From: Naegleria gruberi
Lineage: Eukaryota
NCBI GenBank assembly: GCA_000004985.1
Contig: GG738865.1
DNA: 64,000 bases
Reading direction: 5' to 3' (one strand)
Part shown: positions 1 through 26,065 of the stretch, one piece after another
Layout: each line of letters starts with the position of its first letter
Position numbering within the stretch: the first letter of the stretch is position 1
Notes under the pieces: generated by a model
The model's database searches: none
Told to the model about the DNA's origin: nothing
Seen by the model: the letters and a program-made list of their open reading frames with translations, nothing else
Made by a program: the position numbers and the translations under genes

Positions 1-417
1 ACCCAAACCCAAACCCAAACCCAAACCCAAACCCAAACCCAAACCCAAACCCAAACCCAACCCAAACCCAAACCCAAACCCAAACCCAAACCCAAACCCA
101 AACCCAAACCCAAACCCAAACCCAACCCAAACCCAAACCCAAACCCAAACCCAAACCCAAACCCAAACCCAAACCCAAACCCAAACCCAAACCCAAACCC
201 AAACCCAAACCCAAACCCAAACCCAAACCCAAACCCAAACCCAAACCCAAACCCAAACCCAAACCCAAACCCAAACCCAAACCCAAACCCAAACCCAAAC
301 CCAAACCCAAACCCAAACCCAAACCCAAACCCAAACCCAAACCCAAACCCAAACCCAAACCCAAACCCAAACCCAAACCCAAACCCAAACCCAAACCCAA
401 ACCCAAACCCAAACCCA
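1..417. repeat. terminal telomeric repeat array (CCCAAA)n, equivalent to (TTTGGG)n on the G-rich strand
   Basis: About 69 perfect tandem hexamers starting at base 1. The C-rich strand runs 5'->3' on the + strand, as expected at a left chromosome end. CCCAA 5-mer variants occur at about 57-62 and 121-126. Degenerate copies (aaccctag, cccaaaatt) follow to about 470. Confidence 0.9.
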
Positions 418-807
418 GAACTAAAAATAGAATTCTTCTAAACCCAACGTTCAAACCCTAGCCCAAAATTATAAACTTATTCAAATATCATAAAATTTTA
501 TATCATTCGACTGCAAATGATGAGTAGAACAACATGTTATATTTAGTTTTTCAATTTATAAAATATTAACTTTGTAAATAATTTCAGATTAAAATTGTTA
601 AAATGAAACCATAGGAAGAATGATAATTTCAAAATCTTTTAATGAGATTATATAGTTTATATCATCATTAACAATATTCATAATCACTCTCATATGAAAT
701 TTCAAAAGTTCAAGTCTGTAGATATAAAAGTATAGAGAGAAAAGGGAAGATGTGAGGTAAAAGAGGTCAACTATAACTTTTGAGTTTCTCATCTAAACAT
801 ATTGAAT

Positions 808-1221
808 CCTGATATGAAAATGTTCCATTTGATGAGTAAACATCGAATATCAAATTTATTTTAACTTTCATATTTAAAGATTTCTTCCCTCAACCACACA
901 TGGTCAACTAGGTATGAAAAGGATAAAATCTTGAAAAAGAACCATTATTGAAACTTTACCAACATGATGTAGATGATCTACAATGATGTAGAATTCAATT
1001 TCATATCATAAGAATCAGAAATGGTACCGTAGGAAGATAATGGTTGACTTTATAAGGTTGACTTTAAGGAAATACAAGTCAGACCAAGTCTATCAAATAC
1101 ATCACTTCAATCAACAAAATATATATGAAAATGCTCCATTCGATGTGTAGAGATAGAATATCAAGTTTATTTTAACTTTCATATTCAATATTTCATCCCT
1201 TTCATACCAACTAGTCAACTG
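808..1221. repeat. subtelomeric satellite; two homologous ~110-nt blocks about 302 bp apart, running into an assembly gap
   Basis: 808-912 (atatgaaaatgttccatttgatgagtaaacatcgaatatcaaatttattttaactttcatat...ggtcaactagg) is clearly homologous to 1110-1221 (atatgaaaatgctccattcgatgtgtagagatagaatatcaagtttattttaactttcatat...agtcaactg). The second copy is cut off by the N run, so further copies are probably hidden in the gap. Confidence 0.6.
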
Positions 1222-2193
1222 NNNNNNNNNNNNNNNNNNNNNNNNNNNNNNNNNNNNNNNNNNNNNNNNNNNNNNNNNNNNNNNNNNNNNNNNNNNNNNN
1301 NNNNNNNNNNNNNNNNNNNNNNNNNNNNNNNNNNNNNNNNNNNNNNNNNNNNNNNNNNNNNNNNNNNNNNNNNNNNNNNNNNNNNNNNNNNNNNNNNNNN
1401 NNNNNNNNNNNNNNNNNNNNNNNNNNNNNNNNNNNNNNNNNNNNNNNNNNNNNNNNNNNNNNNNNNNNNNNNNNNNNNNNNNNNNNNNNNNNNNNNNNNN
1501 NNNNNNNNNNNNNNNNNNNNNNNNNNNNNNNNNNNNNNNNNNNNNNNNNNNNNNNNNNNNNNNNNNNNNNNNNNNNNNNNNNNNNNNNNNNNNNNNNNNN
1601 NNNNNNNNNNNNNNNNNNNNNNNNNNNNNNNNNNNNNNNNNNNNNNNNNNNNNNNNNNNNNNNNNNNNNNNNNNNNNNNNNNNNNNNNNNNNNNNNNNNN
1701 NNNNNNNNNNNNNNNNNNNNNNNNNNNNNNNNNNNNNNNNNNNNNNNNNNNNNNNNNNNNNNNNNNNNNNNNNNNNNNNNNNNNNNNNNNNNNNNNNNNN
1801 NNNNNNNNNNNNNNNNNNNNNNNNNNNNNNNNNNNNNNNNNNNNNNNNNNNNNNNNNNNNNNNNNNNNNNNNNNNNNNNNNNNNNNNNNNNNNNNNNNNN
1901 NNNNNNNNNNNNNNNNNNNNNNNNNNNNNNNNNNNNNNNNNNNNNNNNNNNNNNNNNNNNNNNNNNNNNNNNNNNNNNNNNNNNNNNNNNNNNNNNNNNN
2001 NNNNNNNNNNNNNNNNNNNNNNNNNNNNNNNNNNNNNNNNNNNNNNNNNNNNNNNNNNNNNNNNNNNNNNNNNNNNNNNNNNNNNNNNNNNNNNNNNNNN
2101 NNNNNNNNNNNNNNNNNNNNNNNNNNNNNNNNNNNNNNNNNNNNNNNNNNNNNNNNNNNNNNNNNNNNNNNNNNNNNNNNNNNNNNNNNNNAC
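1222..2193. other. assembly gap (972 N)
   Basis: Run of n characters. ORFs 1111..2268 and 1215..2210 in the track are translations of N and are not real. Confidence 0.99.
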
Positions 2194-2899
2194 AAGGTAG
2201 ATATCATCATTATACATCATGTATATGAGATTGGTGATGATTATAATAACATTCATATTATAGTACAATAAATGTTGAAAAGTTAATTATTAGACAAGTT
2301 GTAACTTTTTATATATACTGATTCAACATGATTAATTGAAAATATCATCTATTTATCTATATATCTACAGTATATTCAAATTTACATTCCAACTCAACTT
2401 TGAAATTTCAGACCCAACAGGGTAAAAATCTTTATGTTTTAAGCAGTGCCTTATAACTTTTTCTAGACTTTATATTTTTCAAATATTTTTGAGATTATAG
2501 TCAACTCATATGTGTATCTATCATATTTGAAATGATTGTGTTCCAAGTCATACTCGTTACTAGGAAATGAAAAATAAAAGTTAAGCACTAGTTTTCAGAG
2601 TTGATTTTCTGAATAAGTACAGTGAATTAAAATTCCATTTCTTTTTTATTATATAGTGTACAACGTCTAGTATGATATTGGTAAAAGTCAATTTGCAACA
2701 ATTGGACAACTAAATTTGGGTAATGGATTTACCCTACAGTCTCCCAAACCCCAAACCAAATAAATGATAATATCGTGTTCCACATCTCAAATAAGGTGGA
2801 CTTTCTTCAAATTATATTTTTTCATTTCAATAAATGCATCCAGTAGATAGTACATGGTGATTTGTCAGGAGAATGGATGGAAATCTGAACGGTCCAGAA

Positions 2900-3707
2900 A
2901 CAACTCCAATTTCACTGAAATTGATATCATGATATGTAGACACTCTAATTAGCATATGGTATCAATTTCATGAATATTGGTGCAGTAGATATCGACATGT
3001 CAACTCTATCAATTTATTGACATGATATCATAGATTATACTCCAACTCATTCATTTTACATACAATCAGCCTAGAGTTGATACCACATAGTCTGTACATC
3101 TATTAAATACATCTAGTGTAGTTTGGAAACAGTTCAAACTACTTTTATAAAATTAATCAGTAAATGTTCAATGTCAACAGTATATATATCCTAGTGAACA
3201 CTCTATCTCAATGAAAGTACATTCAATCATCCTGTAACTTTACCAGATATGTTAAATTACACTATTACACATCTGGTATCAATTTCATAGTGTTAGAATT
3301 GAATTCAATATGATAATAATAACAATTTTTCAAAAAGTCAACTTTCAGTACAAAGATTACACTCCATCTCAGTCAATTTACAAAATATCATACAAGTACC
3401 AAATATGAATACACTTCCCTTAATAAAGAGAACAATCTGATAAAGTTGCATATTCATGGCTCAATATCTTCAAGTCAACTAAGGAACGTATAAGGTAATC
3501 AATAGGGAAGAATCTTATTTTCAAAATTAAATTTTACTATGATACTATATTCACTGAATAATGAAATACTTATACAAGAATCACATGTTCAATTGTTATA
3601 TTCATGTCAGTAATCAGTGAAGGTGACACTTCTTCAACCTTAGTGTACACATCTCAATATGCATACTGTCAATTCCACTGAAACTTGAAATATTACCTAT
3701 CTAGAAA
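2900..3707. repeat. degenerate tandem repeats (period roughly 320-375 bp) in AT-rich non-coding subtelomeric DNA
   Basis: Recurring motifs: ggtatcaatttcat at ~2957 and ~3274; caatttcactgaaattga at ~2912 versus caattccactgaaacttga at ~3665; actccaactcattcattttaca at ~3040 versus actccatctcagtcaatttaca at ~3361. No ORFs. Confidence 0.35.
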
Positions 3708-3757
3708 NNNNNNNNNNNNNNNNNNNNNNNNNNNNNNNNNNNNNNNNNNNNNNNNNN
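3708..3757. other. assembly gap (50 N) immediately preceding the internal telomere-repeat block
   Basis: n run. Confidence 0.99.
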
Positions 3758-4072
3758 CCCAAACCCAAACCCAAACCCAAACCCAAACCCAAACCCAAAC
3801 CCAAACCCAAACCCAAACCCAAACCCAAACCCAAACCCAAACCCAAACCCAAACCCAAACCCAACCCCAACCCAAACCCAAACCCAAACCCAAACCCAAA
3901 CCCAAACCCAAACCCAAACCCAAACCCAAACCCAAACCCAAACCCAAACCCAAACCCAAACCCAAACCCAAACCCAAACCCAAACCCAAACCCAAACCCA
4001 AACCCAAACCCAAACCCAAACCCAAACCCAAACCCAAACCCAAACCCAAACCCAAACCCAAACCCAAACCCA
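3758..4072. repeat. interstitial (CCCAAA)n telomere-like array, about 52 units, same orientation as the terminal array
   Basis: Perfect hexamer tandem with one CCCCAACCCAA variant near 3862. It ends cccacgactaaggtcagacccaac. ORFs 3685..4119, 3693..4094 and 3697..4110 are translations of the repeat (QT/PK, GL, GF dipeptide runs). Confidence 0.9.
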
Positions 4073-4833
4073 CGACTAAGGTCAGACCCAACATTTTGAC
4101 TTTTATTCATCTTAATTAATTATCTCAATAAATACTCATTATAAATCAATATATTATATATCAATATACTCCAAATTGAATATATAATCATAATATAACA
4201 TAATATTACATCGTTATAATGACTTATTTAAGTTAATTTCATATAATAGATTAGACAATTTTAATATCAATGAAAACATTTCAAAATCAATTCAAATCAA
4301 TATATCACATTATAAATCATGTTTATAACAATACATATCAATTTCAAATACTTTGGTATCATTTCAGGATATTTACTATTCAACTTGTCAACGGACCCAT
4401 TCTAACATTGAAGATAGAAATCTGTTCCACTTCAATTCACTTCCAATACATCTGTACATGATAATTAAATATATTAATATCATTTTGACATTCATCCATA
4501 TCATACATGGTACATGGCTGATCCACTTGATACCTACAGGGTTGTGACAATGACATCTACTATACAGATCATCATGAAATTGATACAGCACCTTACCAAT
4601 GATGAATAAACACCACTGTATCAGTTTCATGACAATTTGAAATCATTCAACATGTCAGGAGTGTAATCATGAGAATAATGAATGTCAAGATAATGAAATC
4701 ATATTAATTTTAAAATCTTTCAATTATAATATCATTTATAGATCAATTAATCATGGTATTTCAATAATTGGTATTGAATTTCATATCAATTCATTCAAAC
4801 CTTAATGACCTAACCTTAGATGACCAAGTCAAT

Positions 4834-5412
4834 NNNNNNNNNNNNNNNNNNNNNNNNNNNNNNNNNNNNNNNNNNNNNNNNNNNNNNNNNNNNNNNNNNN
4901 NNNNNNNNNNNNNNNNNNNNNNNNNNNNNNNNNNNNNNNNNNNNNNNNNNNNNNNNNNNNNNNNNNNNNNNNNNNNNNNNNNNNNNNNNNNNNNNNNNNN
5001 NNNNNNNNNNNNNNNNNNNNNNNNNNNNNNNNNNNNNNNNNNNNNNNNNNNNNNNNNNNNNNNNNNNNNNNNNNNNNNNNNNNNNNNNNNNNNNNNNNNN
5101 NNNNNNNNNNNNNNNNNNNNNNNNNNNNNNNNNNNNNNNNNNNNNNNNNNNNNNNNNNNNNNNNNNNNNNNNNNNNNNNNNNNNNNNNNNNNNNNNNNNN
5201 NNNNNNNNNNNNNNNNNNNNNNNNNNNNNNNNNNNNNNNNNNNNNNNNNNNNNNNNNNNNNNNNNNNNNNNNNNNNNNNNNNNNNNNNNNNNNNNNNNNN
5301 NNNNNNNNNNNNNNNNNNNNNNNNNNNNNNNNNNNNNNNNNNNNNNNNNNNNNNNNNNNNNNNNNNNNNNNNNNNNNNNNNNNNNNNNNNNNNNNNNNNN
5401 NNNNNNNNNNNN
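4834..5412. other. assembly gap (579 N)
   Basis: n run. ORFs 4768..5421, 4820..5425 and 4829..5593 are N translations. Confidence 0.99.
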
Positions 5413-5417
5413 AAGAT

Positions 5418-6287
5418 TTGAATAGAGGATATATCATTCTGACTGAATATGCCAATGATATGATTATTGGAGCCAATTTGAATATTACGGGAGTTGGTTT
5501 TGACAGAATTCCAGTAAGAAATGTAACAGTTCGAAATGCTGGTTCACTAATGAACAAGTATCTATCAATGAATGTATCAGAGGGCGATATCACACAAGTT
5601 ACAGGAGAAGATGGGATTTCCTACATGATTTCCAGTTCATCCTATTCAATAGACAATTTGAAATGGAGAATGACAATAGTGTGTGAGGAGAGTGAAATTA
5701 TGGAAAATGTCATTCTTAGCAGTTATGTCATTTTGGGTGTTGCTATTGGAGTCACCTTAATTGGAATGATGTTCAGTATCTTGATAGGATATGCCATAAC
5801 GAAACCTCTTCGAATCATTCAATCCGATTTTGCAAAGATTGAAGTAATGAGTTTGGAAGATATTGAGAGACACTCTTCATTCTTTACCGAAATTAGAAAT
5901 ATCTATGTGAGCTTGTACTTGACAGTCAAGTGGTTACAGGAATTTAGAGCTTTCCTTCCAGAGAATATTCTTAATCAATTGGAAAGCAATGATCCTCAGA
6001 AACCTAAAGTAATTACAACACCTTCAGATCAACATGTCATTGAGAATTCAGCCAAACAACATTACCTAAAAAAGGAGAACTCATCATACTTGGAAGAGAA
6101 ATCCTCCCATACTTCATCATTCTTCCTTGGTGTTGATACCAATACCAATAACAAGATGAATCTCTTCAAAATTGGTTTGTCAACCCTTAACAGCTCTGTA
6201 ATGTATATCAAGATACAGNNNNNNNNNNNNNNNNNNNNNNNNNNNNNNNNNNNNNNNNNNNNNNNNNNNCTGTGTAGATTATTATAA
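5418..6287 (+). pseudogene. truncated paralogue of the Cache/TM/cyclase-homology receptor gene at 23427-26065; 5' end lost in the gap, no cyclase-homology domain downstream
   Basis: The protein GYIILTEYANDMIIGANL...NLKWRMTIV...ILGVAIGVTLIGMMFSILIGYAITKPL...WLQEFRAFLPENILNQLES aligns residue-for-residue with QKGFVIISEYGNDYIIGSSL...NLKWRMTLF...ILGVSIAVAILGILVSILVGWVVTSPF...WLSEIRAFIPDSILNQLDE of the 23427..25106 ORF. The frame opens directly at the gap edge. It closes shortly after a second 51-N gap (6219-6269). No coding potential is seen from 6290 to 7190. Confidence 0.55.
6219..6269. other. assembly gap (51 N)
   Basis: n run. Confidence 0.99.
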
Positions 6288-22254: not shown

Positions 22255-22968
22255 ATGCATGCAGAGCAGATGAAGACAGTAGTGGAAGAGTCATCATCAT
22301 TTATTCCATTTGATGGAAAATTATCGGAAATGATGAAAGATGTTCGGGAGGATTTTAATACAGATTTAATTGAGGTGATCATGTTGTGGTTCAATCAATA
22401 CAAGATGAGTCATATTAGTCATTTGTATAGGGATTTGGATGAGATTGGAATGAATGATTTGTGGACTAATGTTTGGTTTGCAAAGGAAGATTCCCAAAAA
22501 TTCATGGATAAAGAATTGAAAAAGTTTGAACCTTTTTATGAACAATATATGAATTATGAACCTAAATATCTGTATGAATATATTGCATTGATTGTGCTTT
22601 ATGATCAAGTTCCGAGAAATATATTTAGGAATAGTGCAAAAGCATACGAGACAGATAGAAAGGCATTGGATTTGGCTCGTTCTCTAGTTCCTTACATGGA
22701 TAAGCTGCCTATTCAGTTTAATATTAGTATTATCATGTCATTTGTACATTCAGAGGAATTGGAGGATTTGAAACAAGCCAAACAGTTTATTGAAGCATTG
22801 GAAATTAAGTATGCCAAGTATAATGTGCTGAAGAATCTCAAGCTCATATTTAAAAATCACAACGATAGAATGGAATTGTTTGGAAGAATTCCTGAAAGAA
22901 ATAAGTATTTGGGAAGAGCATCAACAGAAATGGAATTGACCTATTTGAAGAATATCAATTCTCAATAA
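22255..22968 (+). CDS. DUF924-family protein
   Basis: LYDQVPRNIFR matches the DUF924 D-Q-[FV]-PRN motif. The C terminus FGRIPERNKYLGRASTEMELTYL matches the conserved FGRFPHRNxxLGRxSTxEE end. ATG at 22255. Confidence 0.7.
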   Translation: MHAEQMKTVVEESSSFIPFDGKLSEMMKDVREDFNTDLIEVIMLWFNQYKMSHISHLYRDLDEIGMNDLWTNVWFAKEDSQKFMDKELKKFEPFYEQYMNYEPKYLYEYIALIVLYDQVPRNIFRNSAKAYETDRKALDLARSLVPYMDKLPIQFNISIIMSFVHSEELEDLKQAKQFIEALEIKYAKYNVLKNLKLIFKNHNDRMELFGRIPERNKYLGRASTEMELTYLKNINSQ

Positions 22969-23088: not shown

Positions 23089-23207
23089 GGCTACGGCCAT
23101 ATCACGATGAATGCACCTCATCCCGTCCGATTTGAGAAGTTAAGCATCGTCGAGCTACATCAGTACTGAGGTTGGAGACAACTTGGGAACCTGTGGTGCT
23201 GTAGTCT
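23089..23207 (+). rRNA. 5S ribosomal RNA gene, solitary
   Basis: GGCTACGGCCATATCAC...CATCCCGTCCGATTTGAGAAGTTAAGC...AGTACTGAGGTTGGAGACAACTTGGGAACCTGTGGTGCTGTAGTC aligns along its whole length with eukaryotic 5S consensus. The ends pair (GGCTACGG with CTGTAGTC). A TTTTT pol III terminator follows at 23207-23211. Confidence 0.9.
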
Positions 23208-23426: not shown

Positions 23427-26065
23427 TTATTCTTCGGGTGTGGAATACAACAGTGCTGAAGGTAATCTCTCACCTGGTTTGATAAAACTCACAAATTCCT
23501 TGGCTACAGCCGAATGGTAATATAACAGATTTGGATTTGTTGTTGATTCTTGCACTGTTGATATTAAATGTTCTAATCTCATTACAACAACATCGTTAGG
23601 ATCCAATCTTTTGGCTTCTGCAAGTTCCTTTCTCATCTTGGTCAAATCATCTTGATCGAATTCATCATCCACAAATAATTTTGAAAAGTATGAAGAAAAT
23701 GCATCAAATTTAGAGTTGGCCTTCTTTTGCTCCAATTCATAAAGCCATTCATCATCTTGCACAATATTCTTTCTAAGAATTTCATATACTGTATCTATTT
23801 GTCCCTTCTCCTTATTCCAGATTCTTTCTGTTGGCCTAGTAATAAAAGACTCCTGTGTTTGTGTAAATGTCCTTGAATCACAAATGATTGCCACATTAAG
23901 ATACCATGAAAAGTCATTCAATAGTTTGGCTCTTTCAATAACCTCTCCAACCAGAGCCATGTAACGCATTTGCTTATTACCAACATTACCTTGAATCATT
24001 TGACCTGATGAAATGGAGATGCATGATTTCAGAGCTATTTGATCATCTTTTTGAATTTGATCATTAATGGAATTGAAAAAGGTTTGTATCTTTAGGGCTG
24101 TTTCAATGGCAGTACTTGAAGGACTCTTATCTGAAGGTGAAAATATAATGACATATTCATTGTAGGCTTTGATTTGTAAATCTGCCTTACAGGTCTTACA
24201 CATTTGTGAAATTGCGGTCAGACATTTAGAAATCAAGTTCTGTAACAATCCAGATTCGTAATCAAAGTTATTCTGATTCAGATTTGGAATGGTCAAATAC
24301 ATGATGGAACACTCTTTCATTCCCAGACCAAGTTTGAATAAATGACTGGACTTGTGATTGGAATTTCTGTGATGGGATTGATGTTGATGAATAGAAATTA
24401 CATCTGAGGCACCGTTTGAACTTCTTCTCGAAATTGTATCAAAATTATTGTTGGAATTCTTGGCTGCTGCTGTAAATGAATTAGCATTATCAGTATTGGT
24501 TTCGGTATCTTGCTTGGCTTCATCCAATTGATTCAAAATGGAATCTGGAATGAATGCTCTAATTTCAGAAAGCCATCTTATTGTTTCACTCAGAGAGGCA
24601 TAGATTGCTTTGGGCTCGCTAAAAATTGAACTTCTTCTTTGAATTTCAGACAAGTGCAAGGTTTCAATATTCTTAAAATCTTGCTGAAGTTTTGCAAATG
24701 GGCTTGTTACTACCCAACCAACAAGAATGCTCACAAGAATTCCCAAAATGGCCACAGCAATAGAAACTCCAAGAATAACCCAACTACTTTCAATAATTCC
24801 CTTCTTAATTTCAGATTCATCAAAGAAGAGAGTCATTCTCCACTTTAAATTGTGGAATGTATAAGGTGCAGAAGAGATGAGGAATGAATTTCCCAAACCA
24901 TTATCCAAACTTGTTTGGAAAGAGGTCAAATTTGCAATATTATTCTCTTGTTGATGTTTGAACAGTTTCTCCATCATTTTACCTGCATTTTGTGAGACAA
25001 TTTCAGTTGTTTTGACTCTCTTTGAATCAACTCCATCCACAGCTAGAGAAGATCCAATAATATAATCATTGCCATACTCTGAAATGATCACAAATCCTTT
25101 TTGCATGACTTTTACAGATGATAAAAACTTGGCGATTGCTGCCAGTGAAATGTTGATCTTGGCAAATCCAATTCTTGTCTTGTTAGTTGATGAGGTTGGA
25201 TCTGATCTCCTATAAATTGGTGTACTCCAAAAACTCGAAATTGGTCCATTAATTACTATTTAAATTAGGTTGAATAATAATAAGAATTAGAGTTAATACG
25301 GTTAGAATATGAGAGAAAACACATACCCTTATAAGGAGCTCCAAAACCACCATTCACATATTGACTATGAACAATCATTGATTCCTTATAGTAATCTGTA
25401 TTGGCTACTACATAGGTAATATTAGTAGTGACCTTATCTGGATAGTATTCTCCTGTGGTCATGTTTGCCTTGTACATGATAAATCGTGAACCCTCTGGTT
25501 TTCTCACATACACCAATGAACCATCTGCATTGACACTGTAGGCATAAAGAGCATTGTTTCCATCCTCTCCAAAACACAGATTTGTCACTGTGACTCCAAA
25601 TTGTTTCACTCGTGTAAAGAGATAGTATTGTATCGATTCAGCCATATCCACAAATCCATTATGGTAATCCTCAGCTATGGAATCGGCAACATATTTGGCT
25701 GGTAACAGTTGTGAATTGACAAAGCCACCAATCTTTTCATTCATATTTTCAATAATTACCTTAACTTGATCCAAAGAGGCCTGTTCATTCATTGTATAGG
25801 AAGTGATCCAGATAGTCAATGCTGTCGTCACCACAACCATCATGATCATGACAATGAGGAATAATCTTACACTGAGTAGAAATCTGAGACAACACCCCCT
25901 ATCTGATGATGAGTAGCCATCATCATAATCCTGCCCTCCCGAATCATCTTCAGGGAACATGTTCTGTAAATTATTATTCTGCACATATTTTGCTGATTTT
26001 GAGAAGGAGAGTTCAGTTTCTGATGTTGTTGATTGTTGAGGAACCACCCTATTCGTTACTACCAT
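23427..26065 (-). CDS. receptor with TM, extracellular Cache-like domain, TM, juxtamembrane linker and a class-III nucleotidyl-cyclase homology domain, apparently catalytically degenerate. Two exons, approximately 26065..25327 and 25255..23427.
   Basis: The intron at ~25256-25326 (GTATGT...AAATAG) joins ..GAPYKG to VINGPISSFWS.. in frame. The first TM is FLLSVRLFLIVMIMMVVVTTALTIWI and the second is WVILGVSIAVAILGILVSILVGWVV. The cyclase-homology core is CSIMYLTIPNL...KAYNEYVIIFS...GQMIQGNVGNKQMRYMALVGEVIERAKLL. By eye this aligns to vlFaDIvgFT...GDaym...GpvvaGvvG.kr.rYdvwGdtVNtAsRmE, with the metal-binding Asp pair and the N/R transition-state residues replaced. Confidence 0.65.

Follow-up and report, generated by a model that had tools for sequence, protein, structure and literature searches.

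A putative non-catalytic receptor of Naegleria gruberi with a dCache-like sensor and a degenerate class III cyclase domain

A candidate pseudo-cyclase receptor

We analyzed a stretch of 64,000 nucleotides (nt) of Naegleria gruberi DNA (contig GG738865.1 of assembly GCA_000004985.1; hereafter, the window) and followed up an earlier note, made from the letters alone, on a minus-strand gene at positions 26065..23427. The gene encodes a membrane protein of 855 amino acids (aa). With moderate confidence, we read it as a ligand-regulated, non-catalytic receptor that descended from a double-Cache (dCache) transmembrane (TM) cyclase, i.e., a bacterial-type receptor adenylate cyclase, and that retains a cyclase-homology domain (CHD) which has kept its fold and is dead as an enzyme. 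From the N-terminus onwards, the parts of the protein are TM1, the ectodomain, TM2, a conserved juxtamembrane helix-loop-helix, a low-complexity linker, the CHD, and a helical tail (Table 1). Conservation of the sensor, the juxtamembrane segment, the CHD core, and the tail, despite the loss of the active site, makes a non-catalytic receptor the most economical reading.

Cyclase fold and catalytic columns

The assignment of the domain to the Pfam family Guanylate_cyc (PF00211) in the earlier note is sub-threshold when the window protein is taken as a single sequence, but significant at the level of the family profile and of the fold. On its own, the window protein scored 17.4 bits against PF00211 (E = 0.0036), short of the gathering score (21.9), and yielded weak matches among PDB sequences (E = 0.2–0.4). 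PF00211 was matched by 13 of 16 family members, with a best E-value of 6.6e-8. A profile of 10 family CHDs recovered the solved class III cyclases OaPAC (2.5e-8), CyaB (3.5e-7), and Cya2 (1e-6), as well as soluble adenylyl cyclase (sAC), Rv1625c, and soluble guanylate cyclase (sGC), all three below 1e-3. When the family CHD was aligned to six canonical relatives using hhalign, the match reached 98.7% (E = 4e-16). Structure prediction, proposed in the earlier note, recovered the beta-alpha-beta-beta-alpha-beta cyclase fold: modeled with AlphaFold2 (AF2), the cytoplasmic part of the window protein itself had a predicted local distance difference test (pLDDT) score of 80–93 over the CHD, and its best Foldseek match was CyaB (E = 1.3e-12, TM-score of 0.80 over the whole target), followed by Rv1625c, Cya2, and photoactivated adenylate cyclases.

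The catalytic columns were read from hmmalign and hhalign alignments of the family to the six relatives (P0069, P0072, P0088, P0128, P0140, and P0154), which carry D, K, D, T, N, and R at these columns and match PF00211 with 56–95 bits. In the window protein, the first metal-binding Asp is replaced by T568, the substrate-binding Lys by I608, the substrate-binding Thr/Asp by A680, and the transition-state Asn and Arg by E687 and L691, respectively. The columns of the Asn/Arg pair are high-confidence columns in hhalign, and the same substitutions were obtained in alignments to bPAC and OaPAC. The second metal position falls on N612 in the register used in the earlier note, which fits a hairpin turn predicted at aa 611–612, and on E613 in an alternative register; an Asp is present in neither. 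In place of the beta1-alpha1 triphosphate loop (FxDIxGFT), the protein has IPNLNQNNF. Missing from the protein are, thus, the two metal-binding Asp residues, the substrate-binding Lys (or Glu) with Asp/Thr (or Cys), and the transition-state Asn with Arg. The earlier note had claimed, by eye, that both metal positions and the Asn/Arg pair are substituted; the profile alignments agree, as in them no canonical position holds its Asp, Asn, or Arg. Together with the profile and fold homology, the substituted columns argue for a pseudo-cyclase receptor, as the earlier note had proposed.

The CHD keeps its fold, but we infer that it cannot make cAMP or cGMP. Judged from the sequence, synthesis of cyclic nucleoside monophosphates (cNMPs) by the window protein is very unlikely because neither half of the class III active site can be supplied, be it in a homodimer or in a heterodimer. 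There is precedent for CHDs without part of the catalytic set in the C1/C2 domains of mammalian adenylate cyclase and the alpha/beta subunits of sGC, where each subunit gives one complete half-site, so that there is one active site per heterodimer. Unlike these, the window CHD misses both half-sites. A role as a C2-like or beta-like half-site donor was rejected, as the Lys, Thr, Asn, and Arg are missing too.

Degeneracy across the family

The degeneracy is a property of the whole family, which the earlier note had missed. None of the 16 close paralogs, from N. gruberi, N. lovaniensis, and N. fowleri, has the first metal-binding Asp, and T, S, V, H, R, or L stands in its place; E613 is invariant among them. 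Searching with the family profile gave 11,439 proteins with E ≤ 1e-3, of which 89 had E ≤ 1e-30, and 17 proteins came from a word-indexed homolog search that used a 34-sequence alignment. We took a census of the catalytic columns in those of the best 150 relatives that had full CHD coverage (124). The first-site Asp was found in 10 of the 124, the commonest residues being Arg (26) and Lys (24), and the six relatives listed above were the only fully canonical ones. These six form an exclusive group in a neighbor-joining tree (no bootstrap) and originate from Willaertia, Pharyngomonas, and a eukaryotic metagenome contig. The sampled degenerate members belong to Naegleria spp. and Willaertia magna, with a more distant relative from Entosiphon. 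Family members are labeled "guanylate cyclase domain-containing protein" or "predicted protein" in the databases, and no description of Naegleria pseudo-cyclases was found in the searched literature.

The window protein was compared to the canonical heterolobosean dCache-TM-cyclases (Willaertia magna KAL9647366.1, which is P0088; Pharyngomonas kirbyi P0154; and the metagenomic P0072 and P0069). The ectodomain is homologous, and so are TM2, the juxtamembrane segment, and the CHD. The canonical proteins have neither the low-complexity insertion nor the DEWxYEL tail, whereas the window protein has both, together with none of the six catalytic residues.

The dead CHD is maintained by purifying selection in a family ortholog pair. 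The ratio of nonsynonymous to synonymous substitution rates (dN/dS, Nei–Gojobori method) was calculated between the orthologs of paralog P0002 in N. lovaniensis and N. fowleri and came to 0.087 (CHD), 0.088 (ectodomain), 0.018 (juxtamembrane segment), 0.067 (tail), and 0.43 (linker). At the level of the family, the protein is a pseudoenzyme in the sense of an enzyme homolog with missing catalytic residues that is maintained by selection.

Four more distant relatives (P0084, P0111, P0137, and P0142) possess N-terminal ankyrin repeats combined with the same TM2, degenerate CHD, and DEW module; P0084 has a match to a PDC-like sensor besides the repeats. Hence, the module with the dead cyclase occurs in several architectures. 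In N. fowleri, the ortholog of P0002 (VFQX01000011.1, ~3169–3227) contains an apparent intron of ~59 nt inside the CHD near aa 660. The database models P0005, P0008, P0009, and P0013 are truncated or skip part of the CHD near the same residue, the intron apparently having been mis-called.

The extracellular sensor

A search of PDB sequences with the ectodomain profile gave only McpX, at E = 1.1, and it took the fold to identify the ectodomain. Pfam dCache_1 (PF02743) had no match at E ≤ 5 in the window protein and 15 close paralogs. Weak matches were found in more distant family members (e.g., P0025, E = 0.0046) and clear ones in canonical relatives (e.g., P0140 with 53.6 bits, above the gathering score of 45). 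In the full-length AF2 model of paralog P0001, whose ectodomain (pLDDT of 80–90) is 60% identical to that of the window protein, a long helix precedes two alpha/beta modules; this is a double PAS-like (PDC) fold that starts with a long helix and lies between two TM helices. Foldseek matched this ectodomain model to 9a69 and 9a65 (E = 2e-11), which are models of full-length dCache chemoreceptors, and to 3lib (6e-8) and TlpA (7e-8). A transitive link pointed to Cache as well: the hidden Markov model of the family ectodomain matched P0069 (E = 7e-24) and P0072 (E = 8.5e-21) at a database size of 1.8e9, and these and related proteins carry Pfam dCache_1. The P0001 fold and the link via the canonical relatives support the Cache-like ectodomain claimed in the earlier note. 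As for dCache_1 itself, the close members have no Pfam match, but the predicted fold of P0001 is clearly that of dCache.

Compared to the dCache chemoreceptors, the window ectodomain is too dissimilar in sequence to be detected by Pfam, and the receptor comes from a eukaryotic host and has a dead cyclase domain as its output. To the eye, the window protein has not kept the Arg of the amino-acid-binding motif, at ..TDYYKES... In Naegleria, Cache has been reported in one protein only, namely a "bacterial-type adenylate cyclase" (Upadhyay et al. 2016, PMC4822843). Going by the predicted fold, the family described here would add many cryptic Cache sensors to this single one.

Membrane segments, linker, and tail

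Two hydrophobic segments (aa ~62–90 and ~405–430; Kyte–Doolittle window >1.6) enclose ~310 residues. The predicted models place the juxtamembrane helix-loop-helix directly after TM2. With a mean column identity of 78% over aa 430–490, the highest in the whole protein, this segment follows the pattern TxP[FL]xxL ... SE ... [FY][ILV]P[DE]xV, which the alignment shows to be common to the degenerate family and the canonical relatives. By eye, the segment looks HAMP-like and similar to a cyclase transducer element. Pfam HAMP had no match in the window protein, the 15 paralogs, or the canonical relatives, and a search of PDB sequences with the juxtamembrane profile gave nothing meaningful. The conserved loop includes an RRSS motif at 24621–24632 (aa 453–456; family form [KPE]R[ST]S[IAL]F[ST]E) that, to the eye, looks like a candidate site for a basophilic kinase. 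A second RRSS motif is located at 24411–24422 (aa 526–529).

The linker is a low-complexity insertion of 45–75 aa between the juxtamembrane segment and LFKLGL-beta1 that is specific to the degenerate family. Its pLDDT in the AF2 model was <50. A disordered insertion at this place fits a loss of tight coupling to the catalytic site.

Of 151 relatives, 97 carry a motif of the DEW[LM]YEL type downstream of the CHD, whereas all six canonical ones lack it; the W and Y of DEWLYELE are near-invariant. The tail helices were predicted in both models, that of the window protein's cytoplasmic part and that of paralog P0001. The tail had no relative in Pfam, and a profile search of PDB sequences gave nothing meaningful.

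Proposed function and alternatives

We infer ligand binding, dimerization, and the nature of the output as follows. A small extracellular ligand would bind to the dCache module, and the signal would run through TM2 and the strongly conserved juxtamembrane helix-loop-helix. The output would be non-catalytic, with the dimeric pseudo-CHD and the DEWLYELE helical tail changing their association or their partners. The signaling by dimerization or scaffolding put forward in the earlier note is likewise presumptive.

Several observations weigh against a dead receptor of this kind. The ectodomain model is that of paralog P0001 and not of the window protein. The dN/dS values come from orthologs of a paralog that is 48% identical to the window gene, not from the window gene itself, and dS is near saturation (0.8–1.4 in all regions but the tail, where it is 2.4), although the linker still stands out clearly from the domains despite the high dS. 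At the second metal site, hhalign confidence is low and the register uncertain: the alignment to OaPAC shifts it by one and puts the invariant E613 and K609 on the Asp and Lys positions. Many paralogs, including about half of the 16 close ones, keep an Asp at 612, and some keep the Asn. Finally, the receptor gene had no exact or near-exact entry in a collection of 5.8 billion proteins, and its expression is thus not independently supported.

The conserved CHD core would also suit a regulatory or dominant-negative subunit, in which the pseudo-CHD heterodimerizes with a competent cyclase CHD and ligand-controlled pairing tunes cNMP synthesis. Class III CHDs are obligate dimers, with the Asp pair of an active site coming from one subunit and the Lys, Thr/Asp, Asn, and Arg from the other. 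Because each site needs residues of both subunits, a heterodimer of a canonical and a pseudo-CHD would have no complete site. Heteroloboseans do have canonical dCache-cyclases with homologous ectodomain and juxtamembrane segments (P0088 in Willaertia and P0154 in Pharyngomonas). However, the family outnumbers its canonical relatives 118 to six in the sample, and the family-specific tail and disordered linker suggest an output of its own; we consider a subunit of this type unlikely. We give a lower probability still to a nucleotide sensor, whose degenerate pocket would bind ATP, GTP, or a cyclic nucleotide allosterically by analogy with degenerate GGDEF domains. The CHD does have invariant polar residues (E613, K590, K600, D605, and the GNVG motif), and the solved "class III adenylyl cyclase-like ATP-binding protein" of P. 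aeruginosa (PDB 6yii) sets a precedent. Yet this protein and FimX (3hva) and LapD (3pjx), whose degenerate GGDEF domains serve as nucleotide receptors, are bacterial, cytoplasmic, and found in other domain contexts. Moreover, the loop that replaces FxDIxGFT includes a Pro, and the pair specifying adenine or guanine is absent in the preferred register.

An active cyclase with a non-canonical site appears very improbable to us. Such an enzyme would use E613 and another acidic residue as metal ligands, with K609, R688, or K690 in place of the Lys/Arg. Its best arguments are the alternative register, which brings E613 and K609 to the Asp and Lys positions, and the basic R688 and K690 flanking the Arg position. 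They are opposed by the first metal position, which is Thr here and Ser, His, Arg, Lys, or Leu in the family, very often positively charged, and by the Asn and Arg columns, which align confidently to Glu and Leu; in class III cyclases, loss of either metal-binding Asp abolishes activity. We give the least credence to a decaying, non-functional gene copy near the chromosome end. The gene does lie ~23 kb from the telomere array, is absent from the protein collection, and has no ortholog there that is >60% identical, but its frame is intact across a correct splice, all family-invariant residues are retained, and family orthologs are under strong purifying selection.

Gene model and annotation status

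The coding sequence comprises 2568 nt and is interrupted by a single GT..AG intron. The coordinates and the 71-nt intron given in the earlier note are correct: splicing restores the frame, and the junction (..GAPYK/VINGP..) is gap-free in the alignment to 15 homologs. The start, MVVTNRVVP, lines up with the N-termini of homologs. The open reading frame (ORF) is intact over 855 codons, and the GC content is 33–36% in the window and 35% in the genome. The window protein entered the profiles as exon-level translations.

Table 1. Features of the receptor gene, its product, and the second copy in the window
Feature	Position	Strand	Description	Basis
Coding exon 1	26065..25327	-	aa 1–246 and first base of codon 247; N-terminal cytoplasmic tail, TM1, first half of ectodomain	
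Intron	25326..25256	-	71 nt, phase 1, GTATGT...AAATAG	Frame restored on removal
Coding exon 2	25255..23427	-	aa 247–855 and TAA/TAG-type stop at 23427–23429	
TM1	25796..25882	-	FLLSVRLFLIVMIMMVVVTTALTIWITSY	Kyte–Doolittle
dCache-like sensor	24786..25795	-	aa ~91–403, split by the intron	Fold of paralog and transitive homology
TM2	24708..24785	-	SWVILGVSIAVAILGILVSILVGWVV	Hydrophobic segment
Juxtamembrane helix-loop-helix	24525..24707	-	TSPFAKLQ...RRSSIFSE..., ending in FIPDSILNQL	Most conserved segment
Low-complexity linker	24342..24524	-	aa 491–551, rich in Ser/Asn/Gln/His	Family-specific insertion
Degenerate class III CHD	23772..24341	-	aa 552–741	Profile and fold
T568	24291..24293	-	MYLTIP, at first metal Asp	hhalign high-confidence column, hmmalign
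N612-E613	24156..24161	-	AYNEY, beta2-beta3 hairpin, second metal Asp position	Low-confidence register
A680, E687, L691	23922..23957	-	At Thr/Asp, Asn, and Arg positions; E687 and L691 in GEVIERAKLL	High-confidence columns
C-terminal tail	23430..23771	-	DEWLYELE helix, then ~100 aa of helices	Family-specific
Diverged paralog fragment	5413..6218	+	806-bp contig	N-runs on both sides

In the collection of 5.8 billion proteins, the closest match to the receptor was only 53–60% identical, and an exact look-up of the exon-2 ORF gave no match. Four complete ORFs of the window are exact N. gruberi NEG-M proteins (EFC45015, EFC45016, EFC45017, and EFC44921), all of them on an 820-kb scaffold. Because there is no entry for the receptor although the neighboring genes are present exactly, the gene seems to be unannotated, i.e., it is probably missing from the NEG-M protein set.

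A 5S rRNA gene (Rfam RF00001, 102.7 bits) is located at 23089–23207 on the plus strand, 220 bp beyond the receptor stop codon and convergent with the receptor gene. Between it and an annotated alpha/beta hydrolase gene lies an ORF of 237 aa (22255–22968, plus strand) that has no exact entry in the protein collection.

Second copy and the chromosome end

The earlier note had reported a truncated second copy of the receptor gene at the subtelomere. A diverged paralog fragment does exist (tblastn, 5418..6215 on the plus strand, 38% identical to aa 297–569 of the receptor), but its truncation and exact location are insecure, as it sits on a contig between assembly gaps. The fragment ends at beta1 (VMYIKIQ), with a Lys at the first metal position, and is bounded exactly by the N-runs 4834–5412 and 6219–6269. 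Its truncation may be an assembly artefact.

We take the window to be the end of an N. gruberi chromosome or scaffold because it starts with a (CCCAAA)n telomere array (1–417). The region 1–6269 is a patchwork of small contigs, with further N-runs at 1222–2191 and 3708–3757. An internal (CCCAAA)n array in the same orientation (3758–4072) directly follows an N-run; it arose as an artefact of scaffolding, or else it is a genuine interstitial telomeric repeat. Two similar subtelomeric copies of ~80 bp (atgaaaatg[t/c]tccatt[t/c]gatg...tttattttaactttcatatt...) were noticed by eye at ~780–900 and ~1130–1210.

Implications for Naegleria signaling

Neither dead enzyme domains nor half-degenerate cyclase dimers are new. 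We tentatively propose that the dead CHD and the DEWxYEL tail may form a new non-cNMP output module, found in a large heterolobosean superfamily with relatives in Euglenozoa and joined to dCache, ankyrin, or other N-termini. If so, much of the Naegleria "cyclase" expansion would consist of pseudo-cyclases, and cryptic Cache sensors would be far commoner than reported. Naegleria has at least 81 adenylate/guanylate cyclases (pangenome paper, PMC9928731). Such counts are read as a sign of very elaborate cyclic-nucleotide signaling; at the sequence level, part of the expansion probably makes no cAMP or cGMP, and if a large conserved subfamily makes no cNMP, the inference needs revision. Bacterial-type dCache sensors would also be widespread in a eukaryote, yet invisible to Pfam. 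Since canonical and degenerate versions of the receptor occur in related organisms, they would offer a natural system for studying the role of a dead enzyme domain.

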